From: an uncultured Thermodesulfobacteriota bacterium
Lineage (GTDB): Bacteria > Desulfobacterota > WTBG01 > CAIYCZ01 > CAIRTM01
Assembly: GCA_964621615.1 (NCBI GenBank)
Contig: CAZUMW010000003.1
Location: forward strand, 131,619 to 195,618
Direction of reading: 5' to 3'
Length of the DNA: 64,000 bases
Shown in pieces: positions 3,450-63,451 of the stretch. A program made the translations under genes and the position numbers. Below the pieces are notes generated by a model that saw nothing but the letters and a program-made list of their open reading frames with translations, ran no database searches and was not told the DNA's origin. Each line of letters opens with the position of its first letter. Position 1 is the stretch's first letter.

Positions 3450-3474
3450 CCTGCACAGAAATCATACGACTGCA

Positions 3475-4455: not shown

Positions 4456-4465
4456 GAATACACCC

Positions 4466-5290: not shown

Positions 5291-5298
5291 TTGACATC

Positions 5299-6084: not shown

Positions 6085-6085
6085 T

Positions 6086-6115: not shown

Positions 6116-6171
6116 GAATCCGGTAAACAATTTCGATTCTCTATTTTTCGGCGAACCTGTAAGCGTGCGAA

Positions 6172-7077: not shown

Positions 7078-7154
7078 GAAGATGGTGTCGGAAAAGGGAT
7101 CTCACAGGTGAGATAAGCAGCGACGTTTTTTCATGCATGTTCATATGGTAGGCA

Positions 7155-8911: not shown

Positions 8912-8980
8912 ACAGATGCACGCACATTGTATGCAGGACGGCTGTCTTTACTCCGGGACGAACCATCATGATGGTTTTTT

Positions 8981-45792: not shown

Positions 45793-45869
<77 letters not shown>

Positions 45870-45987: not shown

Positions 45988-47457
45988 TTACTTTTCACTG
46001 TCTGCCGGAGAAAATATCCTGTCCAGAGCGTGCAGTTCAGCATTGTTGCTGTTGTTTTCGACATATTTGCTGTAGACATTGATAATCATCTCCGTGTTCC
46101 GGTGACCCATCATATGTGCTATGTACAACGGGTTGACACCGTTACTGAAGGCGGTTGTGGCAAATGAATGCCGTGTCTGCCGCAAGTCACGGTACGCTAC
46201 ACCGGCATCCTCAAGGGCTGTTGCCCATACCCTTTTTCTGAAGTTGTCGATGTCGATTCGCTTACCTTCAGGGGTGCAGAAAAAATATTCACTGCCGAGT
46301 GTGTTATGAATTTTTTTCTGTTGTGTCAGTATTTCAATCATACCTGGCGTCAGTTTTATGGTTCTTCTGCTGAAGGCATTTTTTGTTCTGCCTTCAATGA
46401 TTTTGCCTTGCGCATCACGAGTCATAGCACGCCTGATATGCAGAAGACCTTTCTGCCAGTCAATGTCCCCCGGCTTTATTGCCGTTTGTTCTCCATGCCT
46501 CATGCCGCAGCAAAATGCGAACCTGATATACGGTTTCCAGTGGGTGGGGGTATGATGCACTATTTCCTGCTGCTCCTGTAGTGTGCACGGGTTGATTTTT
46601 TCATACGAGTTATCCTCTTTCAGTTTCTTGAAGCCGAAGAACGGATTGTATACTGCACCCCAGTTGTACTCTATAGCTGCGTCTTTACAGATCAGTTTCA
46701 GCGGAATGAAAATATTATTGATAGTCTTATTACCGATCACCTTGTTTTTGAGTTGCCGGTTACGGGACCAGGCCACGAACCGTTCAAAAACAGTTTTGTT
46801 CAGATGTGCAAATGTATAATTTTCAAAGAATGGTTTAATGTAATTGTTGAGATAGCTTTTGTAATCACGAAGCGTCCTTCCGGTCATACGTCCCGTTGCT
46901 TCAACCGTTTCAATCCACCGTTGCGCATAATCTGCAACGGAAACCTCACCGGGCGGTTTAGGCATTCCCAGAAGCCGTTCTTCTTTCTGCGTAAAATAGT
47001 CCTTCTTTCTGCTTTCAGGAAAAACCTCTGCGAATCTGAACTCACCGGACTTGATGGCAAGGATTATTTTGTCAAGCTGCTGCCTGACGGTCTTCACATT
47101 TTTTTCATTCCACCTGAGCCCGGCACTCTCACGGACCCGCTCGCCCATGTACCGGAAATCGACATATATGGTGCCGTTCATGTTACGTATGGAGCCCTCA
47201 CGGTTTCTGTTCAGGCCCTGCTTTCTGCCTTTACGGTTTGTCCTGGGCAGTCGGATAACCTCGGCAGACATACCACTGTTGTGTGACATATCTATCCTCC
47301 AGTCATCGGCATCCCTCCTTTCTGCTGATTTTCCCTTGTCATAGATTATCATAGCCGACTGCCTGTTCAAACCAAAATTATATGTTGATAGAGCTCTTTG
47401 CCGGGGACTTTTTTGTGCCTTTTTCGGCAGTATCCCTGCACACTTCTGTACCGTCAT
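45988..47457 (-). CDS. int: Tyrosine-type site-specific integrase
   Basis: C-terminal catalytic domain with R...HxxR...Y residues (HSFATTAFSNGVNPLYIAHMMGH...NVYSKY). The start is uncertain: internal Met at 47352 or 47286 would remove the overlap with the excisionase gene. Confidence 0.8.
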   Translation of the reverse strand: MTVQKCAGILPKKAQKSPRQRALSTYNFGLNRQSAMIIYDKGKSAERRDADDWRIDMSHNSGMSAEVIRLPRTNRKGRKQGLNRNREGSIRNMNGTIYVDFRYMGERVRESAGLRWNEKNVKTVRQQLDKIILAIKSGEFRFAEVFPESRKKDYFTQKEERLLGMPKPPGEVSVADYAQRWIETVEATGRMTGRTLRDYKSYLNNYIKPFFENYTFAHLNKTVFERFVAWSRNRQLKNKVIGNKTINNIFIPLKLICKDAAIEYNWGAVYNPFFGFKKLKEDNSYEKINPCTLQEQQEIVHHTPTHWKPYIRFAFCCGMRHGEQTAIKPGDIDWQKGLLHIRRAMTRDAQGKIIEGRTKNAFSRRTIKLTPGMIEILTQQKKIHNTLGSEYFFCTPEGKRIDIDNFRKRVWATALEDAGVAYRDLRQTRHSFATTAFSNGVNPLYIAHMMGHRNTEMIINVYSKYVENNSNNAELHALDRIFSPADSEK

Positions 47458-47629
47458 CCCCCAGCCATTGTTTAATAGCGGACCATTTGAAAAGCAGCTT
47501 TCGCGGGGAGGGCTTCAGGTAATGTATACCGCGTATGAAGGTTCCCCGGCAGATCATATTGTATATGGTTTGGGGTTTGTACTTAATTGTGGCACACAGC
47601 TCTTTGAGTGTCAGATATTGTTCCTGCAT
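47378..47629 (-). CDS. AlpA/excisionase-family HTH DNA-binding protein
   Basis: 83 aa. YLTLKELCATIKYKPQTIYNMICRGTFIRGIHYL resembles the AlpA/Xis HTH_17 family. Confidence 0.55.
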   Translation of the reverse strand: MQEQYLTLKELCATIKYKPQTIYNMICRGTFIRGIHYLKPSPRKLLFKWSAIKQWLGDDGTEVCRDTAEKGTKKSPAKSSINI

Positions 47630-48196: not shown

Positions 48197-48604
48197 ATGA
48201 CAAAGGAACGCCGGTACCGGTTCCTCAACTTCTGCACAGGCAACAGATGGTACAAACCCATTGCGACTGCAGCAGCACTGTACCGTATGCCCGATGAAAG
48301 GCTCAGCGGACGGCAACGGCTGCGCAAACTGCGGCTGCTGCGGTACCTGCTCAGTATACTGGTAATCGTGAGTGTGATGTGGTCTGTGCTTATGGTTCTT
48401 ATCTACTTACAGGTGCAAAGCGGAATACATATTGAAAATGCACCATATGTCCATACCGGCAAAACGTCGGTAAATTGTTACCGCAGTTTTCACGGCGGGC
48501 TGATCTGTTGCGCCGAAAAACCGATGTTCAAAAGGCAATATCTTAACAGCACCAGAAAACCGGTTGCCGGATATGAGTGCTACAAATACCAGGAAATCGA
48601 TTAG
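48197..48604 (+). CDS. Hypothetical membrane protein
   Basis: 135 aa with one strong TM helix (LLRYLLSILVIVSVMWSVLMVLIYL). Island cargo. Confidence 0.3.
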   Translation: MTKERRYRFLNFCTGNRWYKPIATAAALYRMPDERLSGRQRLRKLRLLRYLLSILVIVSVMWSVLMVLIYLQVQSGIHIENAPYVHTGKTSVNCYRSFHGGLICCAEKPMFKRQYLNSTRKPVAGYECYKYQEID

Positions 48605-48691
48605 CAAAAGACAATGATGATCCTGCCTGCAATGACCCCTCAACAGCATTGAGAGGGGTCATGAAGAAGACTTCTTTCGGAGGTATCTACA

Positions 48692-49066
48692 ATGCAAATG
48701 CTGGAAACCAGACAGACACAGGAACCCGAAAGGGAAAAGCAGAAAGCGACCGCAAAACAGATAAACTATATCAACATGCTGGCAAAACAGCTGGGCTTTC
48801 ATGTAAATGCCGGCGAGTTGAGTAAGCGGACAGCGGCACAAAAAATAGAGCTGTTCAGAAAGATACGGTTGTCCGAGCTTCAACAAAAATCAAAAGAGCA
48901 GGAGGTGCGGATGGCCATGGTGAAAAAGCTTATCTACAAAAAGTGGCTCATGCACAACAAGGAAATCAGCAGGCAGACCGAAAAGGCCTTCATGCAGGAG
49001 GTGTGCTATATCCATCGGTTGTTCAACAAAATCGACAGAGTGGCTGCAGCCAATGAAGCGGCATAG
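48692..49066 (+). CDS. Hypothetical protein
   Basis: 124 aa, charged/helical. Good SD (GGAGGT) upstream. Confidence 0.35.
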   Translation: MQMLETRQTQEPEREKQKATAKQINYINMLAKQLGFHVNAGELSKRTAAQKIELFRKIRLSELQQKSKEQEVRMAMVKKLIYKKWLMHNKEISRQTEKAFMQEVCYIHRLFNKIDRVAAANEAA

Positions 49067-49421
49067 GGCCGCTTTTTTTTCTATATCGTAACATCAATCC
49101 TGACGGCTATTTATGAAAACACGCCTTGCAGCGCTTATAAAGTTGTTTTGTTTTGATTTGGCTTTACGAAACGGCTGATGAACGTCGCAATTAAGCACGA
49201 TTATGTTGAAATGCTCATCTGTAATATTAATGGGGGGTAATTGTAGCAACGTGGAAGAGTTGGACAAACAAAGCAAACGCAATGGCCCTTTTGAAATAAA
49301 CGCAGGAAATATGATAGAAATTTTTGATAGTGAGGGATGTGGAGGTTACAAGAAAACTTGGTTGACCGTTGAGAGCAAGGGCTTTATAGTATGCTTATAA
49401 AATATAGAGAAAGGAACAATA

Positions 49422-50156
49422 ATGAATCACCGAAAGCGCATAAAAGATTCTGAAACTCCTTGGAAAACCAATGGTTGGGTTCCATTTGCGTTAGTTGAAA
49501 ATGAGGCAGAATTTGAAACGCTGCACAAATACCTACTGCTAGTTGAAGATCATATCAGAGACAAAACTGTGGCATTCGCGAGCAATATAAAGAAGACGAT
49601 AGAAAGACTAGGCCTAAGCGGACAAGATGCTGACTATTACTACGAGTCACATGAAAATGAATATGGCAGATTGCATGAAGCGTATCCCAACATTGCCCGT
49701 GCCACTGTGCTCTCAATGGCTTGTTCAGTTTTTGAAAGTGGACTTACAGAGATTTGCAAGGAGTTCGAAAGGACGGATGATGTGCAAACGACCCGAATCA
49801 AGTGGGATAAAATAAATAATGCAACCGGAATAATCAGAGCAAAAAAATACATCAAAAAAAATTTTGATATTCATTTTAATGAACATCAAGAGTGGCAGGC
49901 AATCCGAGATTATTATAAGGTGCGAGACTGCTTTGTACATGCGAACGGCGATGTATCTCTCATGAAAGAGAAGCAAAGTAAAGATATCGAATCGATTACC
50001 CGAAGAGTACCAGGGGTCACCATAGAATATAAACGTTTAAGGCTAGATAGCCGAAGATTTTTCGACGGTGTCTTTGGGACCATGAGTAGATTTTGGTCAG
50101 ACTTGAGGATAGCATTTCGAGAAAACGAAATTGTTGGTCCCGTTTACTGGGAGTAA
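49422..50156 (+). CDS. Hypothetical protein with HEPN-like Rx4H motif
   Basis: 244 aa, AT-rich codon usage. C-terminal region YYKVRDCFVHANG (K-x-R-D-x-F-V-H). Confidence 0.45.
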   Translation: MNHRKRIKDSETPWKTNGWVPFALVENEAEFETLHKYLLLVEDHIRDKTVAFASNIKKTIERLGLSGQDADYYYESHENEYGRLHEAYPNIARATVLSMACSVFESGLTEICKEFERTDDVQTTRIKWDKINNATGIIRAKKYIKKNFDIHFNEHQEWQAIRDYYKVRDCFVHANGDVSLMKEKQSKDIESITRRVPGVTIEYKRLRLDSRRFFDGVFGTMSRFWSDLRIAFRENEIVGPVYWE

Positions 50157-50250
50157 GAACAGATTTCATAGTCATCATGGAAAAAGAAATAGTCTATCAC
50201 ATTGTTCAGCAGATTGGTGCTTTGTGACTGCAGCTAAGCAACTACGCTAG

Positions 50251-51279
50251 TTGTACAAACAGATTATTATGATCGCAAGAATTTACATACAACTCCCATT
50301 CGCTTTAACAATTCCGGAAAAAGAATCTTATCCAGTTTATGCCTATAAATTAGGTGCTTACAATATCTACTATTTCTTTCCGAAGAGAAGCGAGATGGCA
50401 AATAGATATTCCAGCGCTGACAGCATGAAAATGGACGGTAAGCCCGCAATGAGTGCAGATGTCTTACATATTGATTTCCAGACAAAAAGATTTAACCGAA
50501 AAGTCGATGCACAGGTTGATCCTCCGCCTGAATTGATAGAAGAAATTGCAAACGATTTTTTAGCAAGATTGAGATATGTTACCAATGCAAGCAAAATTAA
50601 ATTGATAAAATTATCTAATTTAAATTGGTCTTGTACATATCTGAAAGATGACGGCACTGAGTTAAGGAAAAATAAGCGCTATATTTGTGGCAGAGGAGTG
50701 AGAAAGTTCGTTTTTTCTTATGTGGCGTTGGATAAACAAATTTGGGAGGATATTCACTCTATTCCTCCGGGTTATGAATTTCCGGTTTGGAAAACGCTAT
50801 TACTTGATGCTGCTTCAATATTACCGGAAACTGGTCCAGCAATCATTTTGACCTTTACAGCATTAGAGGTGTTCATTTCAAAAATATTAGATAGTGTAGC
50901 CAAATATAATAAAATTGATCGGGATTTTTGGGGATGGGTCAATAGCCGAGGTTATTTAAAAGAACCAAGCATTGAGGAGAAATATAATTTTTTATCGCTA
51001 CATATAATTGGGAAATCAATAAAAGAGAATAATGATCTTTGGGAGGCTTTTAAACATCTCCGTAAGGCAAGAAATTCGTTCGCACACACTGGTGTAGCAA
51101 TGATTGGTGATGAACTTGTTACAGAAGAGAAAACCCGTTTTTTTATACGCAAAGCCAAAGAAATAATAGATTTTATAAAAAAAGAAATTCCAGAAGAATT
51201 GCGATGGCTTGAGTTTAAGCATGGAGTACAAATGGAAATTATCCAGGCGTTAAGACAGTCTATGGAAGAAGAGCAGTAA
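50251..51279 (+). CDS. Hypothetical protein with HEPN-like RNx3H motif (Abi-like)
   Basis: 342 aa, AT-rich. C-terminal region HLRKARNSFAHTG (K-x-R-N-x-F-A-H). Size and motif are reminiscent of the Abi_2 (AbiD/AbiF) family. Confidence 0.45.
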   Translation: MYKQIIMIARIYIQLPFALTIPEKESYPVYAYKLGAYNIYYFFPKRSEMANRYSSADSMKMDGKPAMSADVLHIDFQTKRFNRKVDAQVDPPPELIEEIANDFLARLRYVTNASKIKLIKLSNLNWSCTYLKDDGTELRKNKRYICGRGVRKFVFSYVALDKQIWEDIHSIPPGYEFPVWKTLLLDAASILPETGPAIILTFTALEVFISKILDSVAKYNKIDRDFWGWVNSRGYLKEPSIEEKYNFLSLHIIGKSIKENNDLWEAFKHLRKARNSFAHTGVAMIGDELVTEEKTRFFIRKAKEIIDFIKKEIPEELRWLEFKHGVQMEIIQALRQSMEEEQ

Positions 51280-51353
51280 CGTCGCTGCATTTGGGGTTTC
51301 CCCAAGAACAATTCATCACGCCCCGCTTCTCCGGTGAAACGGAGCGTGATAAA

Positions 51354-51575
51354 ATGTCTCGAAAAGATAAAAAATTATGTGAGGTTTGCTGTCGTCTGCG
51401 GAATGATGTGCCTGTGGACAGGTATCACGTTTGTGAAGCCTGTCGCAGAGGCGGCAGCGGCATGCCGCGAAGGCTTTCGGTAGTTACACTGAGCAGGGGC
51501 AAACACTATTTCATCGATAAGCGGCTTAAAGAACTGCGCAATGTCGAAAATCCGCTTGACAAAATTGACCTGTAA
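51354..51575 (+). CDS. Small zinc-ribbon protein
   Basis: 73 aa with CEVCCRL...CEACRRG (CxxC-x13-CxxC). GGAG-cgTGATAAA-ATG leader. The longer ORF from 51291 lacks an SD. Confidence 0.4.
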   Translation: MSRKDKKLCEVCCRLRNDVPVDRYHVCEACRRGGSGMPRRLSVVTLSRGKHYFIDKRLKELRNVENPLDKIDL

Positions 51576-51604
51576 GCCGATTCCTGCCACACAGTCAATA
51601 GTGC

Positions 51605-52132
51605 CTAACGTATCGTGAAATAACAGCCATCCGGGCGCTGAATTTTATCGATCGCGTACACTGATTCCTGCGTCAGTTTCCTGTTCAGCCGTGAAAGCTG
51701 GACCCGCAAAGCAGGTATATCGCGAACATCAAGCCTGCTGTTGTGTGCCGATTCGAGGATTTGTGTGTAATTTTTTTCACCCTGACTCAATATTTTAAAA
51801 AGCCCGAGCTGCTTGGGGTTGAGTATGGTATGGATGTTTTCACTCTGGCGCTTTTTCCTGTCAGCTTCAAGCTTTGCCGGTGCATTTAATGTTATCTCGG
51901 TGAGTTCTTTTTTGAGCTCTGCTATGGTATTTTCCTTTTGCCTGATTTCCGTTTCCCGGTCGTTGAGAAGGCGCTGTGTATATCGCAATTCGGATTCCTT
52001 TTCAATTCTCAATGATATGATTTCCTGTTCCAGCTTCTGTATATTTTCGAACAGATCGCGCGGTGCCAGAAAATAACGGATACTGTTCAGGATGCCCTGT
52101 CTCTTTTCCATCGGTATCACCTTTCGTAACAC
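51605..52132 (-). CDS. Hypothetical coiled-coil protein
   Basis: 175 aa, heptad-rich (EQEIISLRIEKESELRYTQRLLNDRETEIRQKENTIAELKKEL). Confidence 0.4.
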   Translation of the reverse strand: MLRKVIPMEKRQGILNSIRYFLAPRDLFENIQKLEQEIISLRIEKESELRYTQRLLNDRETEIRQKENTIAELKKELTEITLNAPAKLEADRKKRQSENIHTILNPKQLGLFKILSQGEKNYTQILESAHNSRLDVRDIPALRVQLSRLNRKLTQESVYAIDKIQRPDGCYFTIR

Positions 52133-53682: not shown

Positions 53683-54405
53683 TTAATCACAGATACTGCA
53701 CCCCTTTTTTCTTTCAACCGTACTGCAGAATTCCGGGATAGTCCCGTCAAGAAACATCTCCTTATAGTTCCACACCCGCATCCTGTCCATAAAGAGGGTG
53801 TCGACCGCATACAGTACGATGCCTCCAACCACTTTGAGTATATCCTTTATGGCCGGCGTACCCGGGCAGGGGTTTTTACCGTCATTGATTGCATCGGGCC
53901 TGAAGCAGCCGAAACAGGCTTTGCCCGGCTCCTGCACATACACGTAGCCGGCATTGCCGAGTTCATTCACGGCAGTGAATATGACCGGTATGTTCCGGCG
54001 GTAATAGTAGTCGGAGACAAACACCCTGGCCGCATCATTGTCAACGCCGCATACCGCAACATCACAGCCAATGTCATGGGAGTCGAACCCGGCGGCATCC
54101 TGAAACTTCCAGGGAAAACCATTAAGACGGGTATCTCCAATACCGTCATGAACCAGGTTTTGTGCAAGCTGCACGGCCTTGTTTTTGTACAGATCTTTTT
54201 TGTAGAACCGTTGCCGGTTAAGGTTTGAAAGCTCCACCGTATCGTCATCAAAGATGCTAAGGGAGCCGACCCCCTTCCGGACAAGTCCCTCGCCGATCTC
54301 GCTACCCAGTCCACCGGCACCGATGAGGTTCAGTCTCAGCTTCCTGAATGTGTTCTGGCTGAACCCTTTGATCTTCTCCTGCCGATCGGTTGCCGGGGCC
54401 TCCAT
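53683..54405 (-). CDS. E1-like ubiquitin-activating / ThiF-MoeB family adenylyltransferase
   Basis: LNLIGAGGLGSEIGEGLVRKGVGSLSIFDDDTVELSNLNRQ nucleotide-binding fold. Two CxxC pairs (ACFGCF, GCSICD). Start placed at MEAPATD (54405). The longer frame to 54690 would run antisense-free but overlaps the JAB gene. Confidence 0.7.
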   Translation of the reverse strand: MEAPATDRQEKIKGFSQNTFRKLRLNLIGAGGLGSEIGEGLVRKGVGSLSIFDDDTVELSNLNRQRFYKKDLYKNKAVQLAQNLVHDGIGDTRLNGFPWKFQDAAGFDSHDIGCDVAVCGVDNDAARVFVSDYYYRRNIPVIFTAVNELGNAGYVYVQEPGKACFGCFRPDAINDGKNPCPGTPAIKDILKVVGGIVLYAVDTLFMDRMRVWNYKEMFLDGTIPEFCSTVERKKGCSICD

Positions 54406-54952
54406 CCTGTGCGTTTTCTGCAGCGGCGTTACGGTTAAAAAAACCGGCTGTTGTGAATCTGAAATGTGTGTCGTCAATTTGCTCAACCCCCTTTCCGTAG
54501 ACGTGAATAATAAAGGGTAGATTGTGTGAAAAAAATCTGATCTGCCCGTCTCTGGTAAATATGCCGCCGATGGCATTGTATCCTCCCGCCTCAATCCGTG
54601 CCTGGTAGTCGAGGTCGATACCCGATGGCGATGAGAAATTTCCGGGATGGCTGTGAAAGTGTGCGTGAAGGCGATGGCCGAACATTTCATCCATTGTTAT
54701 AAGGGTTTTTGCCACCGAATTGATATCGGTTTTGACCTGTACGGGGCTCTGAGTTTGCATCTTTACCTGCTGCATATAGTCAAAGGTCCGCATCCAGCCC
54801 ACCCTGATACCGGTGACAAAATGAAAGACTTCATTAGGACCCATTGAGGTTAGGTACCGGTAACACCGGTACAGAAAAAGCGAGCCGGTCATGAAACACA
54901 GAGGCGTTGCAAGCTCATTCTTGCCTTTCTGAAAAACGTTCGGAAAAAACAT
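54302..54952 (-). CDS. JAB/JAMM (MPN+) family metallopeptidase
   Basis: JAMM motif E...HAHFHSHPGNFSSPSGID (H-x-H-x7-S-x2-D). The 3' end overlaps the E1-like gene by ~100 nt in another frame. Confidence 0.7.
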   Translation of the reverse strand: MFFPNVFQKGKNELATPLCFMTGSLFLYRCYRYLTSMGPNEVFHFVTGIRVGWMRTFDYMQQVKMQTQSPVQVKTDINSVAKTLITMDEMFGHRLHAHFHSHPGNFSSPSGIDLDYQARIEAGGYNAIGGIFTRDGQIRFFSHNLPFIIHVYGKGVEQIDDTHFRFTTAGFFNRNAAAENAQDGGPGNRSAGEDQRVQPEHIQEAETEPHRCRWTG

Positions 54953-54973
54953 GGCATACCTCCCCTGGCAGAT

Positions 54974-55354
54974 TTAAAATCCAAAATATATTTCATGTAT
55001 GATTCGTTCTATGTGAATTATCCCCGAATCGATATCCCGCGGCTGCCGGCTGAAGTGAATAAAGAATTTTCCACCGCCTTTATGGTTGTTGAAACATGCA
55101 CCATGTTCGGGATGATCCAGGATTTTTCCGGTTGGTTCATAAATATAGAACCTGAGTTCGGTCGGAAGACGATATTCTTCGATAAGGCCTTGAAAGTCGG
55201 TAAGCAAGGAGATTTTATATCGGCCGTGATAGGAAAACCCCAAACCTCTGGGGCTTCGTATCCAGCCGTTTTCCTCCCAGTAGGGTTTCAGGGACCGCTT
55301 TATCCGCAGCGGTCCGGTCCTGAAAGCCGGGTCGGATTTGATGCGGATGGTCAT
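54974..55354 (-). CDS. Putative E2-like (UBC-fold) protein
   Basis: 127 aa from MTIRIK (strong SD AGGAGG 8 nt upstream). Contains a DHPEHGAC segment resembling the E2 HPN-x-Cys active-site region. Positioned between the Ubl and JAB genes. Confidence 0.4.
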   Translation of the reverse strand: MTIRIKSDPAFRTGPLRIKRSLKPYWEENGWIRSPRGLGFSYHGRYKISLLTDFQGLIEEYRLPTELRFYIYEPTGKILDHPEHGACFNNHKGGGKFFIHFSRQPRDIDSGIIHIERIIHEIYFGF

Positions 55355-55418
55355 AGGGTATCCTCCTTTCAAAAAAAAAGAGGACAGCAGGATGTCGGCA
55401 CTGCTGCCCTCCCATAGA

Positions 55419-55646
55419 TCAGCCGACCATAGCATTGGTGATTGCAAAGAGTTTGGCACCGTCATTAACATGCGGGTACACCACCTCGGTATCGGCAAAC
55501 GGAGGATGTGAGGGACCGAGTGAGAGTTTGTAGCCATAGAGGTTAAGCTGGTGGCAAATATCATATGCTGTTGTGCCGGGTTCTATAGTGATGTCATGGG
55601 GTTCCCCGTCGGTGCTTGCTACCTTGACTGCAAGTCTTTTTGCCAT
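55419..55646 (-). CDS. Putative ubiquitin-like (beta-grasp) protein ending in Gly
   Basis: 75 aa (MAKRLAVKV...AITNAMVG-stop). The size, a Gly immediately before the stop, and the position at the head of the E2-JAB-E1 genes support a Ubl. SD GAGGAG 9 nt upstream. Confidence 0.45.
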   Translation of the reverse strand: MAKRLAVKVASTDGEPHDITIEPGTTAYDICHQLNLYGYKLSLGPSHPPFADTEVVYPHVNDGAKLFAITNAMVG

Positions 55647-56850: not shown

Positions 56851-57039
56851 ATGTATGTAACAGAAGATGATATAAAAAAACTTTTATATGAACCGCTTGA
56901 ATTTGCAAGCAGAATGGAAACCGCTGAGATTGATTACGTACTGGAGAAATTTTTGGACGTACGCACTGTAAAATATAAATACCAGGAGGACTTTATGAAA
57001 TCAAAATGGCAAAAAGAATACAATCCCCTTCATCGATAA
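56851..57039 (+). CDS. Small hypothetical protein
   Basis: 62 aa, acidic N-terminus. Overlaps the start of the nuclease gene. Confidence 0.35.
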   Translation: MYVTEDDIKKLLYEPLEFASRMETAEIDYVLEKFLDVRTVKYKYQEDFMKSKWQKEYNPLHR

Positions 57040-57749
57040 ACATGTACAATCGATGTCCCCGTAAGTATTTCCTGCACTACATATTAAAAAATCCCATCAA
57101 ACCGAACATCCATCTGTACCGCGGCTCAATCGTACACAGCACCCTGCATCTGTTCGAACAGCTCAAGCTCAGCAACATTACCCGGAAGGACCACCCGCAG
57201 CTCAGAACACAGCTGCTGGATATCTTTTATGCAGAGTGGAAAAGGCATGCAGAAGACATTGCCGGGCTGTGGCTGCCCGATGATGTCGTAAACGGGTTCC
57301 GGGAGGAAAGCATCATGATGCTTGACAATTTTCTTGCTCATTACATTGAGGAACAGATACGCGGTCCGCCGGAGAAAAAGACCGAGCTCAAGCTGTTCTC
57401 CGGTGACGAATACTCGGTGATGGGTATCGTTGACCTCATAAAGGAAAAGGACGGAACCGTTGAGATCATCGACTACAAAACCGCAAAAAAAGCGGACATG
57501 ACAGCAGAATACCGGCTGCAGCTTGCAATCTATGCGCTGCTGTATGAAGAAAAATTTAACCGGCTGCCTTCCCGTGTCGGGATTCATTTCCTGAAGTACA
57601 AAGACGGTGTCAGGATGATTGAGGTCGACGAGCAGCTTGTCAACCTTGCCAAACGCGAGGCAAAGCTGATTCATGTCAATACCGCCTCGGACAATCCTGC
57701 CGATTATCCCTGCAGGTGCGGGGGATGGTGCGAGAGGGATTTTGCATGA
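57006..57749 (+). CDS. Cas4-like / RecB-family PD-(D/E)xK nuclease with Fe-S cluster cysteines (DUF83-like)
   Basis: N-terminal SPSSINMYNRCPRKYFLHY (Cas4 motif with first Cys). VMGIVDLIKE...EIIDYKTAKK (D...E-x-D-Y-K catalytic motif). C-terminal CRCGGWC (Cx1Cx3C), giving a 4-Cys cluster. Confidence 0.65.
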   Translation: MAKRIQSPSSINMYNRCPRKYFLHYILKNPIKPNIHLYRGSIVHSTLHLFEQLKLSNITRKDHPQLRTQLLDIFYAEWKRHAEDIAGLWLPDDVVNGFREESIMMLDNFLAHYIEEQIRGPPEKKTELKLFSGDEYSVMGIVDLIKEKDGTVEIIDYKTAKKADMTAEYRLQLAIYALLYEEKFNRLPSRVGIHFLKYKDGVRMIEVDEQLVNLAKREAKLIHVNTASDNPADYPCRCGGWCERDFA

Positions 57750-59701
57750 GAAACGATATCAGAGAAACGTTGCAGAAGCTGAAACCGCTTATCGGTAAAA
57801 AGGCCGATGCCCTGTGGCTGTTGTACCAGTCTGCAGATTACCGGGAACGGGGGGATGTTGAAATAAAGATCAACCTTATTGCCGAAAAATATCTCAGAAG
57901 TTTTGAGGATAAAATCGAGCTGCCGCCGTTAACAAGTGCGGATGCAGCAGGAGAGTTGGAAGTCGGCCGGGTAAACTATGCAGACAAAAATCTCTACGGT
58001 TTCGGGCTCAGAAAGCAGGAGCTTCTGAAACATATCGGCATATTCGGTCAAACAGGAAGCGGCAAAACCGTTGCAACGTTGAACCTTTTAAAAGAACTTT
58101 GCAGTCAGAAGGTGCCGTTTCTGGTGTTTGACTATAAGCGTAATTACCGGGACATAATCGACCACCCGGATTTTACAGATGAAGAGATTCTTATCTTTAC
58201 CGTGGGCCGTGACATATCCCCGTTTTATTTCAACCCGAAAAACAAACCGCCCGGAGTTGAGCCGCACGTATGGAACAAAAAATTGTGCAACGTTATCGAG
58301 AAAGCCTATTACCTGGGCTATGGTGCCATGGATGTTATTATGGAAGCATTCGGCAGCAAAACCTTCAAGGAAATGGAGGGCTATCTTAAAAAGCAGCGCA
58401 AGCGTGCCAGGGAGCTTTTGTGGTATATGAGCGCAAAAAGGACTTTGAATGCGATTAATTTCCCGGGGCTCTCAGAGGTCGTAAACTGTGAGAAAGGATA
58501 CCCGATTGAAGAACTCCTGAAGAAGAAAGTCATCCTGGAACTCGACGGACTTTCCGATACCGACAAGGCGTTTTTTACCGGCAGCCTGCTTTTGTGGATC
58601 TATTACTTTCGTTTATGCGAACAGCAAAGAGAGACGGTGAAACATGCGGTCATAATCGAAGAGGCACATAATCTTTTCTACAAAACAAAACACGATGCCG
58701 AAGATATCACCGACATTATTATGCGTGAGATAAGAGAGCTGGGTGAGAGTATCACCGTAATCGACCAGCTTCCTCACCGTATTTCGCTCACTGCACTGGG
58801 AAACATCTTTACAAAAATCTGCCTCAGCCTGTCGCTGACCCAGGATATCATTGCCATGAGCAATGCTCTGTTGCTTGACAACCATCAGAAGCGATACCTC
58901 GGCATGCTGACACTCGGCAGGGCTATTGTAAAGACGGGAAGACATCCGTTTCCCTTTCTTGTCACCATCCCTGCGTTTAATTTGCGCAAGGGCTCGATCA
59001 GCGACAGCGGTGTAAAACAGCATATGCGTCCGTATTTGAAGCATTTAGGCCGTGAAATGCCTCCGATGCCGAAAACGGCAGATGTTCAGGGTGTTCAAAA
59101 ACCTGATTCCCTGTCCCCCATTGCGAAGATTTTGCTTAGCGATATCTGCATGAATCCCTTTGCCGGTATCGTCAAACGGTATAAAACACTGGGGCTGGGC
59201 ACGGCGGAAGGAACTGCGGCACAGCAGGAACTTATGGACAGGCACCTGATTAGAGCCGTAACCGTCGAGGGTACAAAGATCCTTGATTTGACCGATACCG
59301 GAAAAGAACTGGTGAAATCTATGGGTATACAGGGGTCTTTTAAAAAGCCCCGCGGCGGGACAATCCACAATTATTACATACACCGCATAAAAAAAGAGCT
59401 GATAAAAGCAGGCCGGTTTACATTCATTGAACATGACCGGATTGATATCGTTACGCAAAGCGGAAACCTTCACCAGACCATTGCAATAGAGGTTGAGACC
59501 GGCACGTCCACCATTGAAGGAAATCTGTGGAAACTTGCAAAACATACCGCTGACCGGAAGTATATGATAGCAACAAACAAAGAAGCGCTGAAACATATTG
59601 AGCAGATATACGCTCCTTTGTTAATACCTGATAAGGAAAAGATAAAGATATATTATGTCAAAGATTTCCTTGCAGACCTTCCCCACATCCTTTCATGCTG
59701 A
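57746..59701 (+). CDS. HerA/FtsK-like (DUF87-type) P-loop ATPase with C-terminal wHTH/endonuclease-like region
   Basis: Walker A GIFGQTGSGKTVATLNLL followed by LVFDYKRNY (HerA-type). Walker B VIIEEAHNLF. C-terminal ~200 aa with HTH-like and IEHDRIDIV...IAIEVETG segments. ATGA start/stop overlap with the nuclease gene. Confidence 0.6.
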   Translation: MRNDIRETLQKLKPLIGKKADALWLLYQSADYRERGDVEIKINLIAEKYLRSFEDKIELPPLTSADAAGELEVGRVNYADKNLYGFGLRKQELLKHIGIFGQTGSGKTVATLNLLKELCSQKVPFLVFDYKRNYRDIIDHPDFTDEEILIFTVGRDISPFYFNPKNKPPGVEPHVWNKKLCNVIEKAYYLGYGAMDVIMEAFGSKTFKEMEGYLKKQRKRARELLWYMSAKRTLNAINFPGLSEVVNCEKGYPIEELLKKKVILELDGLSDTDKAFFTGSLLLWIYYFRLCEQQRETVKHAVIIEEAHNLFYKTKHDAEDITDIIMREIRELGESITVIDQLPHRISLTALGNIFTKICLSLSLTQDIIAMSNALLLDNHQKRYLGMLTLGRAIVKTGRHPFPFLVTIPAFNLRKGSISDSGVKQHMRPYLKHLGREMPPMPKTADVQGVQKPDSLSPIAKILLSDICMNPFAGIVKRYKTLGLGTAEGTAAQQELMDRHLIRAVTVEGTKILDLTDTGKELVKSMGIQGSFKKPRGGTIHNYYIHRIKKELIKAGRFTFIEHDRIDIVTQSGNLHQTIAIEVETGTSTIEGNLWKLAKHTADRKYMIATNKEALKHIEQIYAPLLIPDKEKIKIYYVKDFLADLPHILSC

Positions 59702-60057: not shown

Positions 60058-60999
60058 ATGATGAAAACAAAAAGCAACAAATCAGAAAATGGGTTCAATC
60101 TCTATCAGCACATCACTGATAAAATCATTGAAGCGCTTGAAAAAGGTGTCGGACCGTGGGTGCGGCCATGGGACGATTCCGGAGTGCAGTTCATCTGGCC
60201 GAGAAACGCGTTATCGGCCAGACCGTACAACGGGATAAATGTCCTGCTTTTGAACATGGTTGCCCTTGAAAAAGGCTATACGGACCCGCGCTGGGTGACC
60301 TTCACCGATGTAAAAAAGCGCGGCGGACACATAAACAAAGGTGAACGCCATACAAAAATCGTTTTCTGGAAATTCCTGGAGCGCCGGGACCGACAGGAAG
60401 ACGACGACACGCACAGAGACGAGCATACCGGTAAAAAGGTTATACCGCTTCTGCGCTATTACCGTGTTTTTAATGTGCAGCAGTGCAAGGGTTTAAAATT
60501 AAAAGAGCTTCAGAAGCCCGAGCCGGAAACTGCTGCAGGCGGGGAAAACATCCGGGCGGAAAAAATCCTGTCACTGCCCGACATACGAACCGGCGGGAAC
60601 CGTGCCGTCTATCATCCTGGACAGGATATCATACAGCTGCCGCCGAAAACATCTTTTAAAAACCTGCAGCATTATTACGCCACCGGCTTCCATGAAACGG
60701 TTCACTGGTCAGGTCACGGTACACGGCTTACCCGCAGTTTCGGTAAACGATTCGGTGACGACACATACGCAATGGAAGAGTTGGTTGCCGAGATCGGATC
60801 GGCATTCCTGGGCGGTCATGTCGGTCTGCCGTTTACGGAGATGCGTCATCCTGAATACATACAGTCCTGGATTACATCCCTGAAAAACGACAACAGGGCA
60901 ATATTCACCGCATGCCGGATGGCGCAGGCTGCAAGTGATTACATTTTGAAAAACGCCGGCATTGACCGGCCTGAGGACCAAACAGCGGCTGTCCTCTGA
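60058..60999 (+). CDS. ardC: ArdC-like antirestriction protein (N-terminal ssDNA-binding domain + zincin metalloprotease domain)
   Basis: N-terminal NLYQHITDKIIEALEKGVGPWVRPWD...PYNGINVLLL (DUF1738/ArdC-N). C-terminal HETVHWSGH (HExxH). Confidence 0.75.
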   Translation: MMKTKSNKSENGFNLYQHITDKIIEALEKGVGPWVRPWDDSGVQFIWPRNALSARPYNGINVLLLNMVALEKGYTDPRWVTFTDVKKRGGHINKGERHTKIVFWKFLERRDRQEDDDTHRDEHTGKKVIPLLRYYRVFNVQQCKGLKLKELQKPEPETAAGGENIRAEKILSLPDIRTGGNRAVYHPGQDIIQLPPKTSFKNLQHYYATGFHETVHWSGHGTRLTRSFGKRFGDDTYAMEELVAEIGSAFLGGHVGLPFTEMRHPEYIQSWITSLKNDNRAIFTACRMAQAASDYILKNAGIDRPEDQTAAVL

Positions 61000-61086
61000 A
61001 GTGCTTTTCTGTTACGGCACTTCCCGCATTTCCTTCATCAATACGAAATCCCATAACCGACATACAGCAAAAAGGAGGTACATGCC

Positions 61087-61260
61087 ATGGACCCGATCCA
61101 TGAAAAGGTGAACTGCGTCCTGCGGATACCGCTTTTAAAAAGACAACTGCGGGCATGCATTATCCTGCGGGCTGTCTCGGTGAGCACCGACCACGAACGC
61201 GAACAATTAAACACGGTCCTTGATAGCGTTATCGAGGACAGCAAAAAGAAAGGCAGGTAG
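61087..61260 (+). CDS. Small hypothetical protein
   Basis: 57 aa ORF (below the 60-aa track cutoff) with a strong SD AAAGGAGGT 6 nt upstream. Confidence 0.35.
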   Translation: MDPIHEKVNCVLRIPLLKRQLRACIILRAVSVSTDHEREQLNTVLDSVIEDSKKKGR

Positions 61261-61264
61261 CAAT

Positions 61265-61522
61265 ATGGCATATACACCGCAACTGACATATCAGTATTCG
61301 GCAATCCTCAGGCGGCTTGCCTGGGCGGCGGACCTTCCCATGACAAAAACGATCGAATTGATACTTGATTCCGCTGTGGAGCGCACAGACACGTCTTTTG
61401 TCTGTGAAAAATGCAGGGACAGGAGCAGGTGCAGCGGCTGTCCGTTTTACCATAAGAAAGGAGATAGTGCAGATGGAAACAATAGTGCTTTTACAGTGGA
61501 AGCTCAAAGAGGAGTTTCTTGA
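61265..61522 (+). CDS. Small Cys-rich protein
   Basis: 85 aa from MAYTPQ. CEKCRDRSRCSGCPF cluster. SD AAAGGCAGG upstream. Confidence 0.35.
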   Translation: MAYTPQLTYQYSAILRRLAWAADLPMTKTIELILDSAVERTDTSFVCEKCRDRSRCSGCPFYHKKGDSADGNNSAFTVEAQRGVS

Positions 61523-61655
61523 TGAAGGCGGCACACTGGCACGGTGCCCGGTGTGTCAGGCGGAAACAAAGTTGGGTACCGACGAGGAGATCATGGCCGG
61601 GCTTTTTGTCTATCACTGCTGGAACTGTACGACACACATTATACATGAATCCTGA
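61473..61655 (+). CDS. Small zinc-ribbon protein
   Basis: 60 aa METIVLLQ...CPVCQ...CWNC. SD AAAGGAG 10 nt upstream. Overlaps the previous gene in another frame. Confidence 0.35.
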   Translation: METIVLLQWKLKEEFLDEGGTLARCPVCQAETKLGTDEEIMAGLFVYHCWNCTTHIIHES

Positions 61656-61672
61656 AAAGAAAGGAGCCTTAT

Positions 61673-61885
61673 ATGGAAATCACCACCATCATTAAATCAA
61701 AGGGCTTTGAGTGCCTGGACATTGACGAGCGTTCGGATGCCTTTGAAGAGTACCTGGAAAAATGCGGCAGACTGCAGCACACCGGTGAAATGTTGGCGCT
61801 GCTTGACGGACGTGTCTGGGTTATTACCAACGAATACGATGTCGGCGAACTGACGGCAACCTTTCTGCTGCCGTCTGAATACTGA
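61673..61885 (+). CDS. Small hypothetical protein
   Basis: 70 aa, SD AAAGGAG upstream. Confidence 0.4.
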   Translation: MEITTIIKSKGFECLDIDERSDAFEEYLEKCGRLQHTGEMLALLDGRVWVITNEYDVGELTATFLLPSEY

Positions 61886-61900
61886 AAGGAGGCATGTGCT

Positions 61901-62119
61901 ATGAAACCGAGAGTAATTGTGGAAGTAAGAAAGGGCATCGCCCATGTTACAACAGACAGCCGGGATATCGCGGTAACGGTCATTGATTATGATGTGGAAG
62001 GCTGCCCGGTTCCGCAGTCTATCTGCAAGGCAGCCGCAGACGGCAACCACCGGGCAGCCGTAACACAGGTTGAAAACACTGATCTGGCTTATGTCGACCG
62101 GATGTTTCTGCAGATTTAA
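61901..62119 (+). CDS. Small hypothetical protein
   Basis: 72 aa, SD AAAGGAGG upstream. Confidence 0.4.
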   Translation: MKPRVIVEVRKGIAHVTTDSRDIAVTVIDYDVEGCPVPQSICKAAADGNHRAAVTQVENTDLAYVDRMFLQI

Positions 62120-62149
62120 TTACGGTAACAACAGTGAAAGGATATCGTG

Positions 62150-62314
62150 ATGAGCACAAAGAGGAAAAATACATACCGGGTCGATTGCTATATGTACATC
62201 GAACCCGATGAAACTGAAACCTATGACAGCCGTGATGAGGCCCGGAAAGCACAGGAACACCTGGAATGCGTACATCCGGAAAACATCTACCTGATACGGA
62301 AAACAGAAGAGTAG
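62150..62314 (+). CDS. Small hypothetical protein
   Basis: 54 aa MSTKRKNTYRVDCYMYIEPDE..., SD GAAAGGA upstream. Followed by a terminator. Confidence 0.3.
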   Translation: MSTKRKNTYRVDCYMYIEPDETETYDSRDEARKAQEHLECVHPENIYLIRKTEE

Positions 62315-62339
62315 AAGATAAGAAGAAATAAAGCAGACC

Positions 62340-62388
62340 CAAAACAGACAAGCCTCCGGGTCACACTCCCGGGGGCTTTTTTATTATA
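62340..62388 (+). terminator. Rho-independent terminator
   Basis: AAGCCTCCGGG-tcacact-CCCGGGGGCTT followed by TTTTTATT. Confidence 0.55.
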
Positions 62389-62400
62389 AGGAGAAAGCCG

Positions 62401-62847
62401 ATGAAGCGGATAAACATAGTCAGGATAATGCAGGTTCGGGAGGGCAATCTTTCCTATGATACATCGACTGTGTCATGCAATGGTGATGCGGCACATATCG
62501 TCGAAAAATTCCTGGAAGGCGTCGACCGTGAACACTTCGGCGTGCTGTGTCTGAACGCAAAAAACAGGATCAATGCCATCAATACTGTTTCCATCGGAGC
62601 GGTTGACCAGTGTATGGTAACCCCGCGTGAATGCTATAAGGCAGCCATTCTCAGCAACAGCGTATCAGTAATATTTTTTCACAACCACCCCAGCGGCGAT
62701 CCTGCGCCCAGCCGACATGATACGCATTTGACCGGAATCCTGGTTGAAAGCGGAAAGATCCTGGGCATAACGGTTCACGACCACATCATCACAGCCGGCA
62801 ACGGCAGATACATCAGCATGCGGGATGAAAATCCCGACATGTTCTGA
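62401..62847 (+). CDS. radC: RadC-like JAB-domain protein (UPF0758)
   Basis: VIFFHNHPSGDPAPSRHDTHLT is the RadC/JAMM signature. Common on conjugative elements. Confidence 0.8.
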   Translation: MKRINIVRIMQVREGNLSYDTSTVSCNGDAAHIVEKFLEGVDREHFGVLCLNAKNRINAINTVSIGAVDQCMVTPRECYKAAILSNSVSVIFFHNHPSGDPAPSRHDTHLTGILVESGKILGITVHDHIITAGNGRYISMRDENPDMF

Positions 62848-63052
62848 TAACCGCTTTTGCAGAAGCAAAAAAAACATAATTCAGACGGGTTTGTGAAATG
62901 CTTCAGATGCACGACGCACGAAATCTTGTGGAATAAAGAGTGATACATGATGAGCGCCCAGCCGCAGATGGACTTTTTGCCAATCCGTCATTCTTCCTCA
63001 AAGAAGAGGTCCGCACGTGGCCTCTTCTTGTGAGGCATGGAGGTGATAGACA

Positions 63053-63451
63053 ATGGATACCATGAAAGAACTTTTTGGTGATGTAATACACGTATATACC
63101 CGCACACAGGCAATCGAAGACGGTGTGCTTATTGATGTCACGCAAACCGCCCGGGAAGCAGGCATCCGTTTCCCGGTAGCATTGACGGCGGCAGTATGGC
63201 AGGAATATGTCGTTCCGGATGAAGCATTAAAAAATCACGGCCAGTCAACGGAAGGCAGGCTCTGGGATGTATTGTGGATGTTCCGGTTCAGTGCCGGTTT
63301 GAGTTCTGAAGCTGTCATATGCTATCAGGTGTTCTTTACCATGCTTGTAAACCAAACACCGGAGCAGCGGCTTGTAACCCTCAAAGCTGTTTGCGGTCCC
63401 GGCGATCATGGCGAGCCGGTGATAACCATCATGAAGTCTGATGAGGACTAA
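63053..63451 (+). CDS. Hypothetical protein
   Basis: 132 aa, SD GGAGGTG upstream. No recognised family. Confidence 0.35.
   Translation: MDTMKELFGDVIHVYTRTQAIEDGVLIDVTQTAREAGIRFPVALTAAVWQEYVVPDEALKNHGQSTEGRLWDVLWMFRFSAGLSSEAVICYQVFFTMLVNQTPEQRLVTLKAVCGPGDHGEPVITIMKSDED

Follow-up and report, generated by a model that had tools for sequence, protein, structure and literature searches.

Two adjacent and probably independent solo HEPN genes on an integrase-bearing genomic island

Solo HEPN proteins have recently become models of how one polypeptide can both sense infection and execute abortive infection by cutting tRNA. ApeA was reportedly described as a single-protein HEPN defence by Gao et al. 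in 2020. Its gene stands alone, often among restriction-modification (R-M) genes, and the ApeA/BMEI1217 family was included in a survey of HEPN proteins (PMC3710099), while the non-HEPN part of ApeA forms a ligand pocket that activates the RNase (10.64898/2026.01.26.701840). HepS ('HEPN Solo'), from prophage Gifsy-1, is an abortive-infection protein; it is produced constitutively as a homo-oligomer that stays auto-inhibited until a phage protein activates it, whereupon it cuts tRNA anticodon loops (PMC13043305). Together with DARNA (10.64898/2026.02.22.705581), these two proteins provide precedents for HEPN immunity by a single protein without an antitoxin. Other HEPN proteins have partners: RTasHEPN takes its definition from the reverse transcriptase with which it is paired (Mestre et al. 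2022, PMC9226505), and some operons contain two HEPN genes, as in the case of Bxe_C0808 and AbiU2 (PMC3710099). The HEPN motif has the form Rx4-6H, and its arginine is usually followed by N, D or H (PMC3710099).

Two neighbouring genes, ORF1 and ORF2, in the 64,000-nucleotide stretch of DNA analysed here (the window), add two uncharacterised families to this solo class. The families are different from one another and are distantly related through the HEPN domain only. HEPN genes are common in defence islands and the finding is therefore ordinary in kind; moreover, two similar defence genes that lie next to one another in one island need not constitute a system.

The island and its low-GC cargo

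The features of the island and of the two genes are as follows.

45793..45869, plus strand: tRNA-Met (CAT), found by ARAGORN (Rfam tRNA, 64.5 bits)
45988..47457, minus strand: tyrosine integrase (Pfam Arm-DNA-bind_2 and Phage_integrase, 1.1e-17 and 4.6e-16)
47378-47629, minus strand: excisionase-like HTH_17 gene that follows the integrase (Pfam HTH_17, 3.6e-5)
49055..49075, plus strand: terminator-like hairpin and T-run which closes the preceding gene and borders the lowest-GC segment on its upstream side
49362..49390, plus strand: σ70-like promoter candidate TTGACC-17-TATAGT upstream of ORF1, from a consensus scan
49422..50156, plus strand: ORF1, 244 aa, a stand-alone, almost all-alpha HEPN-like protein
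50269..51279, plus strand: ORF2, 336 aa, starting at ATG 50269, with a β-rich N-terminal domain and a C-terminal HEPN domain

The two plus-strand ORFs of the preliminary description, each with an R-[ND]-x3-H motif, were confirmed from the sequence. Its choice of TTG 50251 as the start of ORF2, yielding 342 aa, was wrong; all homologues begin with MIAR or MLAR and the NCBI annotation of the source contig gives 336 aa, and the start was therefore set at ATG 50269. The start of ORF1 is preceded, 8 nt on its 5' side, by a Shine-Dalgarno-like aGGA.

A local drop in GC content and a recent acquisition had also been proposed, and both are borne out. The GC contents of ORF1 and ORF2 (0.404 and 0.356) lie below those of the rest of the island (about 0.465) and of the chromosome (0.567), and the two genes form low-GC cargo within the variable part of a mobile element that bears an integrase. 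This island, which also carries ArdC and RadC, has the tRNA-Met (CAT) gene as its probable integration site. The 3' end of the tRNA is not repeated as an att site anywhere in the window, and the right end of the island therefore lies beyond position 64000.

The promoter upstream of ORF1 is only a candidate, because such sites are no more numerous in the region than in shuffled sequences. A 65-aa ORF at 49203-49400, directly before ORF1, was weighed as a possible antitoxin and found to be unsupported: on the identical contig the gene caller passes it over, it overlaps the promoter candidate, and at the locus of the closest relative other genes precede ORF1.

Motif conservation and HEPN assignment

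The motifs and domains of the two proteins are located as follows.

49923..49940, plus strand: ORF1 catalytic-type motif R168-D-C-F-V-H173 (family consensus IRNCIVHAxG)
50269..50703, plus strand: conserved β-rich N-terminal domain of ORF2, about residues 1-145
About residues 156-304 of ORF2: C-terminal HEPN domain, supported by AF2 secondary structure and by HEPN profile and Foldseek matches
51070..51087, plus strand: ORF2 catalytic-type motif R268-N-S-F-A-H273 (family consensus ARNSFAHxG)

The C-terminus lies 77 residues beyond the RDCFVH of ORF1 (residues 168-173) and 69 residues beyond the RNSFAH of ORF2 (residues 268-273). Taken on its own the loose R-[ND]-x3-H pattern is weak evidence because it is common by chance; of the 94 ORFs in the window that are 150 aa or longer, 11 contain it, a sulfotransferase among them, and it arises in 7.6% and 3.1% of protein shuffles of ORF1 and ORF2, respectively. 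The stricter form R-[ND]-x-F-[AV]-H is found in the window in ORF1 and ORF2 only, and in about 6e-4 of the shuffles of each.

At the level of sequence, the decisive evidence that the motif is real is the conservation of its Arg and His within each family. A word-indexed search returned ORF1 alone, and its family was revealed by an exhaustive phmmer search which gave at least 611 cluster representatives at E<=1e-3, about 210-250 aa in size and with identities down to about 20%, and 27 matches at E<=1e-30. In the alignment of 66 members, Arg168 is present in 66/66 and His173 in 65/66, the residue after the Arg being N in 48, D in 12 and H in 6, and H173, G176, E105 and W158 are each at least 90% conserved. 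For ORF2, 70 homologues were found with 33-84% identity, and the family was not found in viral contigs. R268, N269, H273, G275, W258 and F261 are present in all 41 aligned members of this family, which extends down to 32% identity, and E200 is at least 90% conserved. Non-conservation of the motif R and H among homologues, which the preliminary description had named as evidence against its proposal, is thus the opposite of what was observed. Both families show the HEPN Rx4H pattern, including N, D or H after the Arg.

The families also share a Trp exactly 10 residues before the motif Arg and a conserved upstream Glu (E105 and E200), and the layout W-x9-R-[ND]-x3-H-x(1-2)-G is common to the HEPN domains of ORF1 and ORF2. 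The two Glu residues align with one another, and the Ex3[KR] form that the upstream acidic residue of HEPN proteins typically takes is not retained. The claim that the proteins are otherwise unrelated in sequence holds for a direct BLASTP comparison, which aligns the motif region only (E=0.026), and fails for the family profiles, which align over 77 columns across the catalytic helix (hhalign E=3.7e-5, probability 71%).

In the AF2 models the motif lies at a helix end where a loop begins, as judged from secondary structure only, and this matches the placement of HEPN helix 3. For ORF1 (pLDDT 96.4, pTM 0.92), R168-H173 closes helix 158-174 at its C-terminal end and enters a loop; for ORF2 (pLDDT 85.2), helix 255-274 ends with R268-H273, after which comes a β-hairpin. 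Solved HEPN domains are four-helix up-down bundles. The best-probability matches of the ORF2 model in the PDB, although weak, are HEPN domains (Foldseek: 2q00/2jpu, prob 0.97, TM 0.63 on target; Csm6 5fsh, prob 0.85; and HI0074), and they concern its C-terminal part, whereas the N-terminus is β-rich. The ORF1 model is almost all-alpha and yielded generic helical bundles only when searched against PDB and BFVD.

Neither protein reaches the gathering score of a curated HEPN profile in Pfam, searching the PDB sequences with both family profiles produced no significant match, NCBIfam and PHROGs gave nothing useful for ORF1 or ORF2, and neither family is named in any of the profile libraries searched. 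Support for the HEPN assignment comes instead from sub-threshold matches which are consistent across family members, and from the PADLOC RTasHEPN matches of the ORF1 family. RTasHEPN (PDLC03820), a profile associated with UG22-type defence reverse transcriptases, lies closer to ORF1 than any other sequence profile (E=3.9e-7, residues 140-211), the match covering the HEPN core only (profile positions 56-125 of 148); it is matched by 47/66 family members, at best with 6.9e-10, and 9/66 match Pfam HEPN_RiboL-PSP. Among the larger annotated island ORFs in the window there is no reverse transcriptase. ORF2 matches the Pfam families HEPN_RiboL-PSP, HEPN_Apea and HEPN_Cthe2314, all below cut-off, and these are matched at E<=0.01 by 22/41, 16/41 and 4/41 of its family, respectively. 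HEPN_RiboL-PSP (PF18735), the most frequent match of the ORF2 family, aligns its positions 35-189 (of 191) with residues 192-307 of ORF2, nearly the entire HEPN domain, with 18.7 bits against a gathering score of 28.4, and all other family matches also fall below that score.

Could the motif nevertheless be fortuitous, with one or both proteins being, for example, structural helical proteins rather than HEPN nucleases? The frequency of the loose pattern by chance, the sub-threshold scores of every curated HEPN match and the generic bundles retrieved with ORF1 would all allow for this. Against it stand the near-invariance of R and H in deep alignments, the N, D or H after the Arg, the conserved upstream Glu, the position of the motif at a helix end, the alignment of the two families at the motif and the likeness of the ORF2 model to solved HEPN domains. 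Moreover, only HEPN profiles were matched repeatedly and no non-HEPN profile family recurs among the members of either family. We attach a very small probability to a chance motif, and conclude that ORF1 and ORF2 both belong, very probably, to the RNases of the HEPN superfamily, their Rx4H site being intact and conserved. The earlier proposal of HEPN RNases with a defence or toxin role is supported.

The more specific suggestion, that ORF2 or both proteins belong to Abi_2 (AbiD/AbiF), rested on a similar size (~340 aa) and an RNx3H near the C-terminus. It did not survive the profile searches, which found no PF07751 match at E<=1 for ORF1 or ORF2, nor at E<=0.01 for 41 and 66 relatives, and no matching PADLOC Abi model; the N-terminal half of ORF2 is, in addition, β-rich and resembles nothing found. 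The probability of Abi_2 membership is, in our estimate, close to negligible.

Comparison with described systems

HepS appears to be the best functional model for ORF1, by analogy. Both are small single-domain Rx4H HEPN proteins encoded by a lone gene on a mobile element, without an antitoxin. They differ in that ORF1, unlike HepS, is extended N-terminally by a long helical stretch (in the AF2 model, helices 19-62 and 78-117), and HepS gave no PDB-sequence match to the ORF1-family profile at E<=10 and lay outside the Foldseek top 50, although its structure may be absent from the libraries.

For ORF2 a parallel is offered by ApeA, which similarly joins a non-catalytic N-terminal region to a C-terminal HEPN domain, there of Apea type, and whose ligand pocket may serve as a model for the N-terminal domain of ORF2. 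The characterised ApeA homologue Ec2ApeA is, however, much larger and mostly helical, with N-terminal, Mid and split-HEPN domains and a HEPN region at 335-583, whereas ORF2 has 336 aa and a β-rich N-terminus of ~145 aa. The HEPN_Apea profile (PF18739) scores ORF2 at 18.1 bits against a cut-off of 24.4, the best value among the 16/41 matching relatives being 1.9e-5, and the PADLOC ApeA models do not match ORF2.

The N-terminal domain of ORF2 has no match in Pfam, NCBIfam, PHROG, PADLOC or PDB. It carries the invariant residues R77, P85 and Y124 and the near-invariant residues F70, K72, F75, D84, R102, D127 and D128, is presumably a sensor or regulatory domain and, having no detectable relatives, is a candidate for a new type of sensor. 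We regard the chances as about even that the ORF2 family constitutes a new single-protein immune sensor whose β-rich domain recognises an infection signal.

The logic of a sensor domain joined to a HEPN effector is also that of Csm6/Csx1 and of DARNA (10.64898/2026.02.22.705581). Csm6 HEPN domains are among the structural matches of ORF2, and the Csm6 'LRNKVAH' was the top PDB sequence match of the ORF1 profile (E=0.079, not significant), with the catalytic R372/H377 aligned. Unlike Csm6/Csx1, ORF1 and ORF2 have neither a CARF domain nor a CRISPR or cyclic-oligoadenylate context. They differ also from HEPN-MNT toxin-antitoxin modules, since no MNT nucleotidyltransferase was matched among the ORFs flanking the two genes and neither family has a recurrent neighbour, and from the type III systems (AbiF/ToxIN) with their tandem-repeat RNA antitoxin, no tandem repeats being present at 48600-51800. 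The tRNA was the sole Rfam match.

Genomic neighbourhoods and proposed function

The preliminary description favoured a paired HEPN system with a composite site. In such a two-component system the proteins would form a hetero-oligomer with a composite R/H site, or one would gate or neutralise the other. Several properties of the locus agree with this: the genes are adjacent and co-oriented, with a gap of 112 bp in which no terminator was found, so that co-transcription is possible, a single promoter candidate lies upstream, both genes fall within the lowest-GC segment, their HEPN domains are distantly homologous and share one motif layout, and the Bxe_C0808 operon with AbiU2 is a known two-HEPN case. 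The neighbourhoods of relatives, for which further loci were gathered with a hand-made degenerate DNA pattern, tell against it. Outside this element, the ORF1 family is absent from about 15 ORF2-family loci, and the ORF2 family from a further 81 loci of the ORF1 family, whose loci number 60 in total once redundancy is removed. Among these, the closest relatives whose contigs are of sufficient length to reveal neighbours, with 41% identity to ORF1 and 64% to ORF2, are likewise unpaired. In addition, the genes differ in both GC and GC3 (the latter 0.384 for ORF1 and 0.309 for ORF2), and characterised HEPN nucleases act as homodimers. We therefore consider a two-component system improbable. The absence of co-occurrence outside this element suggests that each gene is self-sufficient. 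That two solo genes have newly joined in this one element as a cooperating pair, through a mixed-site hetero-oligomer or gating, as a two-gene system being born, seems about as improbable; the proposal that the ORF2 family is a sensor is the more probable of the two.

Nor does either family have any other recurrent partner; none of the 25 top Pfam families listed recurs in more than 2 of the 123 immediate neighbours of ORF1-family genes at the 60 non-redundant loci. Members of each family stand singly, often close to R-M, Gabija or Shedu genes, integrases or prophage genes, and their neighbours include Type ISP and MmeI R-M genes, Gabija-like OLD-TOPRIM with UvrD, Shedu SduA_C, HNH, TIR, Schlafen/AlbA_2, integrases and P2 tail genes. 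The mobile side of this context bears on a further possibility, namely that the proteins are HEPN RNases which serve maintenance of or competition between mobile elements, as addiction-type toxins or by exclusion of rivals, or RNA processing, rather than anti-phage defence. The integrative element in which the two genes reside also carries ArdC and RadC, some family members adjoin integrases or transposases or stand in a cassette-like array, and many ORF1-family neighbours are non-defence genes. An antitoxin candidate, whether MNT, a conserved small partner or a tandem-repeat RNA, is nevertheless absent from the vicinity, R-M, Gabija-like, Shedu-like and TIR genes recur as neighbours, and the antitoxin-free solo HEPN proteins cited above all act in abortive infection. 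To a role outside anti-phage defence we accord a modest chance.

We consider it probable that ORF1 and ORF2 are independent single-gene HEPN modules which act as abortive-infection RNases. Each protein would be a metal-independent endoribonuclease and, by analogy with HepS, ApeA and DARNA, would assemble into homodimers or larger homo-oligomers whose active site is built from two Rx4H motifs. Synthesised in an auto-inhibited form, each would be switched on by an infection cue, with the β-rich N-terminal domain of ORF2 acting as sensor or gate, and the long N-terminal helices of ORF1 contributing to oligomerisation and gating. Once active, the enzyme would cleave RNA of the host, with tRNA anticodon loops as the most plausible target, and thereby abort the replication of a phage or rival element. 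The clear catalytic residues of both proteins make these proposals easy to test.

Two further candidates were set aside. A same-strand neighbour of ~350 aa in three loci of close ORF1 relatives, considered as an ORF2 analogue, matches neither family HMM and is without RxxxxH; it carries a PD-(D/E)XK-type motif. An ORF with the motif 'RNAQYH' in the low-GC patch at 4-8 kb of the window, considered as a third HEPN gene, encodes a sulfotransferase.

Gene models, base composition and the shared motif

The two putative HEPN genes are carried by an integrase-bearing mobile element, here termed the island, and share a short motif:

49422-50156, +, ORF1, 244 aa, with a Shine-Dalgarno-like aGGA 8 nt upstream
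49923-49940, +, motif RDCFVH, ORF1 residues 168-173, 77 residues from the C-terminus
50269-51279, +, ORF2, ATG start, 336 aa
51070-51087, +, motif RNSFAH, ORF2 residues 268-273, 69 residues from the C-terminus

ORF2 had earlier been read from a TTG at 50251 as a 342-aa protein; this start is too early, because the MIAR/MLAR N-termini of 40/40 aligned homologues coincide with the ATG at 50269 and NCBI, in annotating the 208-kb source contig, likewise gives a 336-aa product. The GC content falls stepwise from 0.567 in the chromosome, through about 0.465 in the island, to 0.404 in ORF1 and 0.356 in ORF2, in agreement with the local decrease reported previously, and genes of both families have a lower GC content than their own flanks in most sampled loci. 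Another low-GC patch in the window, at 2049-9940 (0.35-0.375 at 4-8 kb), is a polysaccharide/O-antigen-type cluster unrelated to ORF1 and ORF2, encoding a Wzt-like ABC transporter, four sulfotransferase-like proteins and a polysaccharide deacetylase.

In its loose form, R-[ND]-x3-H, the motif is no rarity: 11 of the 94 window ORFs of at least 150 aa contain it, including, as a chance instance, a sulfotransferase of the polysaccharide cluster (RNAQYH), and so do 7.6% of shuffled ORF1 proteins and 3.1% of shuffled ORF2 proteins. The strict common form, R-[ND]-x-F-[AV]-H, is limited to ORF1 and ORF2 among the window ORFs and arises in about 6e-4 of the shuffles of each. To judge from the alignments, it is conservation across homologues that makes the HEPN-type motif real. 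For ORF2, 70 homologues were found, and an alignment of 41 sequences, extending down to 32% identity, shows no substitution at R268, N269, H273, G275, W258 or F261. ORF1 appeared to be an orphan, with no relatives in a word-indexed search; exhaustive HMMER searching yielded at least 611 relatives at E<=1e-3, 27 of them at E<=1e-30, with full-length matches to proteins of about 210-250 aa. Among 66 aligned relatives, down to about 20% identity, R168 is conserved in 66/66 and H173 in 65/66, the arginine is followed by N in 48, D in 12 and H in 6 sequences, and conservation reaches at least 90% at G176, W158 and E105.

Probable assignment to the HEPN superfamily

HEPN proteins are characterised by a four-helix bundle, by an Rx4-6H motif ending helix 3, by a polar residue (N/D/H) after the arginine and, often, by an acidic residue further upstream (PMC3710099). 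Going by their alignments, both families show the motif and the polar residue of that survey; each also has a conserved upstream glutamate (E105 in ORF1, E200 in ORF2), though not in the typical Ex3[KR] form. In the AlphaFold models of both proteins (ORF2, pLDDT 85.2; ORF1, pLDDT 96.4, pTM 0.92) the motif lies at the end of a helix, where the chain passes into a loop.

The profile matches agree with one another but stay below threshold. ORF2 matches HEPN_RiboL-PSP, HEPN_Apea and HEPN_Cthe2314, all below the Pfam cut-offs, and these were the only families matched by its 41 aligned members (22, 16 and 4, respectively). ORF1 matches the PADLOC 'RT-associated HEPN' profile (E=3.9e-7), as do 47/66 relatives (best 6.9e-10), while RiboL-PSP-HEPN is matched by 9/66. 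The two proteins had been described as otherwise unrelated-looking, and BLASTP aligned their motif regions alone (E=0.026); the family profiles, when compared by hhalign, align over 77 columns (E=3.7e-5, probability 71%), pairing E105 with E200, W158 with W258 and the R and H of each motif, which makes ORF1 and ORF2 distant homologues within the HEPN core.

Structure searches with the predicted models gave mixed support. The best-probability Foldseek matches of ORF2 in the PDB were HEPN domains, namely 2q00/2jpu (probability 0.97, TM 0.63 on the target), Csm6 (5fsh, probability 0.85) and HI0074, all with weak E-values of at least 0.16. The ORF1 model retrieved generic long-helix bundles only, and the top PDB sequence match of its profile, the Csm6 HEPN domain, was non-significant (E=0.079), with RNxxxH placed on the catalytic motif. 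Both are very probably HEPN proteins, ORF2 slightly more so than ORF1. The central proposal of the preliminary description, HEPN Rx4H proteins on acquired DNA, is upheld. The suggested Abi_2 kinship is not supported: PF07751 matched neither protein at E<=1 nor any of their 41 and 66 aligned relatives at E<=0.01.

Independent occurrence and possible mode of action

The two genes had been considered a tandem pair forming a composite active site. Loci of the ORF2 family were collected from 11 genomes (Nitrospirota, Omnitrophota, Bacteroidia, Acidobacteriota, Planctomycetota, Gemmatimonadota and Proteobacteria) and four metagenomic contexts. Those of the ORF1 family came from three contexts with usable flanks and from 84 stretches retrieved with a degenerate DNA pattern (W-x8-[IV]R[DNH][CA][FIV][VA]HAxG[DN]), 81 of which encode a family member; dereplication at 90% identity left 60 non-redundant ORF1-family loci, of which 38 span 3 kb or more. 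When HMMs of both families were run against all ORFs in all loci, no co-occurrence was detected in the sampled loci beyond the window element and two nearly identical copies of it from metagenomes (L001 and L002). Neither family has a recurrent partner gene in these loci: around ORF1-family genes the most extensive neighbour clusters reach 5/90 loci, mostly duplicate contigs, and among 123 immediate neighbours no Pfam family is seen more than twice. Elsewhere each gene is self-sufficient, and a composite heteromeric site is therefore without support from the sampled loci. A search for antitoxins beside ORF1 and ORF2 revealed no nucleotidyltransferase, tandem-repeat RNA or Rfam match.

Characterised antitoxin-free HEPN immunity proteins share a common logic, in which an infection cue activates a constitutively made, auto-inhibited homo-oligomer: a phage tail-tip peptide for HepS (PMC13043305), 5'-phosphorylated deoxydinucleotides for ApeA (10.64898/2026.01.26.701840) and ssDNA presented on phage SSB for DARNA (10.64898/2026.02.22.705581). 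The two Rx4H motifs of the dimer then cleave tRNA anticodon loops, leading to growth arrest (same three sources). By analogy, we infer that ORF1 and ORF2 would each separately follow this logic, from auto-inhibited homo-oligomer through infection cue to anticodon-loop cleavage. The conserved β-rich N-terminal domain of ORF2, in which R77, P85 and Y124 are invariant and D84, D127 and D128 near-invariant, and which has no detectable relatives in sequence and structure searches, may be the sensor, and the long N-terminal helices of ORF1 could serve in oligomerisation and gating. Neither family is named in Pfam, NCBIfam, PHROGs or PADLOC, except for the partial match of ORF1 to RT-associated HEPN, from which it differs in that none of the larger annotated island ORFs here is an RT. 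By the same analogy, both appear to belong to a well-known kind, the solo HEPN abortive-infection/toxin proteins of mobile elements.

The island and the family neighbourhoods

The lower-GC island extends to the window end; no attR was found within the window, and the right end lies beyond it. Local features, signals and cargo are:

45793-45869, tRNA-Met, adjoining the integrase
45988-47457, tyrosine integrase, with an HTH_17 excisionase-like gene
49055-49075, terminator-like hairpin preceding the lowest-GC segment
49362-49390, promoter candidate upstream of ORF1
53683-55564, -, region with a ThiF/E1-like gene, matched by Pfam (3.5e-27) and by many PADLOC 'E1-E2' models (down to 2e-16)
54302-54952, -, weak JAB-like ORF adjoining the ThiF/E1-like gene
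54974-55564, -, unknown 196-aa ORF beside the ThiF/E1-JAB genes
57006-59701, +, PD-(D/E)XK nuclease (Pfam 6.5e-26, also Cas4-like), then directly a 661-aa HerA/DUF87-like ATPase
60058-63451, ArdC-type anti-restriction protein (ArdcN and zincin metallopeptidase, 1e-41), RadC-like JAB (2.4e-36) and DUF6573

The last three genes suggest an integrative conjugative or mobilisable element. The region 53683-55564 may be a ubiquitin-like conjugation defence module (Bil-type or CBASS-accessory-like), and the nuclease-ATPase pair could be a further defence or DNA-processing module. No terminator was found between ORF1 and ORF2, and their co-transcription is possible from the sequence. A 65-aa ORF ending 22 nt before ORF1 (49203-49400, +) is probably no gene: the promoter candidate overlaps it, it was not called on the identical contig L001, and different genes lie upstream in the locus of the closest ORF1 relative. 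Directly downstream of ORF2, where the GC content rises, a small ORF (51291/51355-51575, +, 73-94 aa) encodes a zinc-ribbon-like CxxC...CxxC protein, for which no family match was found; an inverted repeat with an 18-bp stem (51312-51353) lies between the two.

Genes beside members of the two families are often of defence or mobile-element type: Type ISP and MmeI restriction-modification, HNH, Gabija-like OLD-TOPRIM and UvrD, Shedu SduA_C, TIR, Schlafen/AlbA_2, SNF2, integrases, transposases and P2 tail genes. In several independent contigs, close ORF1 relatives adjoin proteins, about 350-400 aa long, that carry a PD-(D/E)XK-type motif (RIDLLGIDK..IIEIKR) and are similar to NucS or Shedu nucleases:

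L047, 3149-4264
L056, 239-1303
L102, 5580-6635
L028, 3701-4915, with SduA_C and a small TIR protein near the ORF1 relative

This may reflect a loose association or mere clustering in defence islands. Six viral or prophage contigs (IMG/VR, L110-L115) also carry ORF1-family genes, and the scanned neighbours, taken together, include P2-type tail genes (P2_Phage_GpR, Phage_tail_S); no ORF2-family gene was detected in the viral contig collection searched. An ORF2 homologue with 64% identity (P0008) lies in a one-directional run of small genes (L030, 1-7850) encoding 67, 336, 176, 167, 198 and 173 aa. Spacers of about 80-150 bp separate these genes, a DUF6763 ORF stands at either end, and the run looks like an integron-type cassette array.
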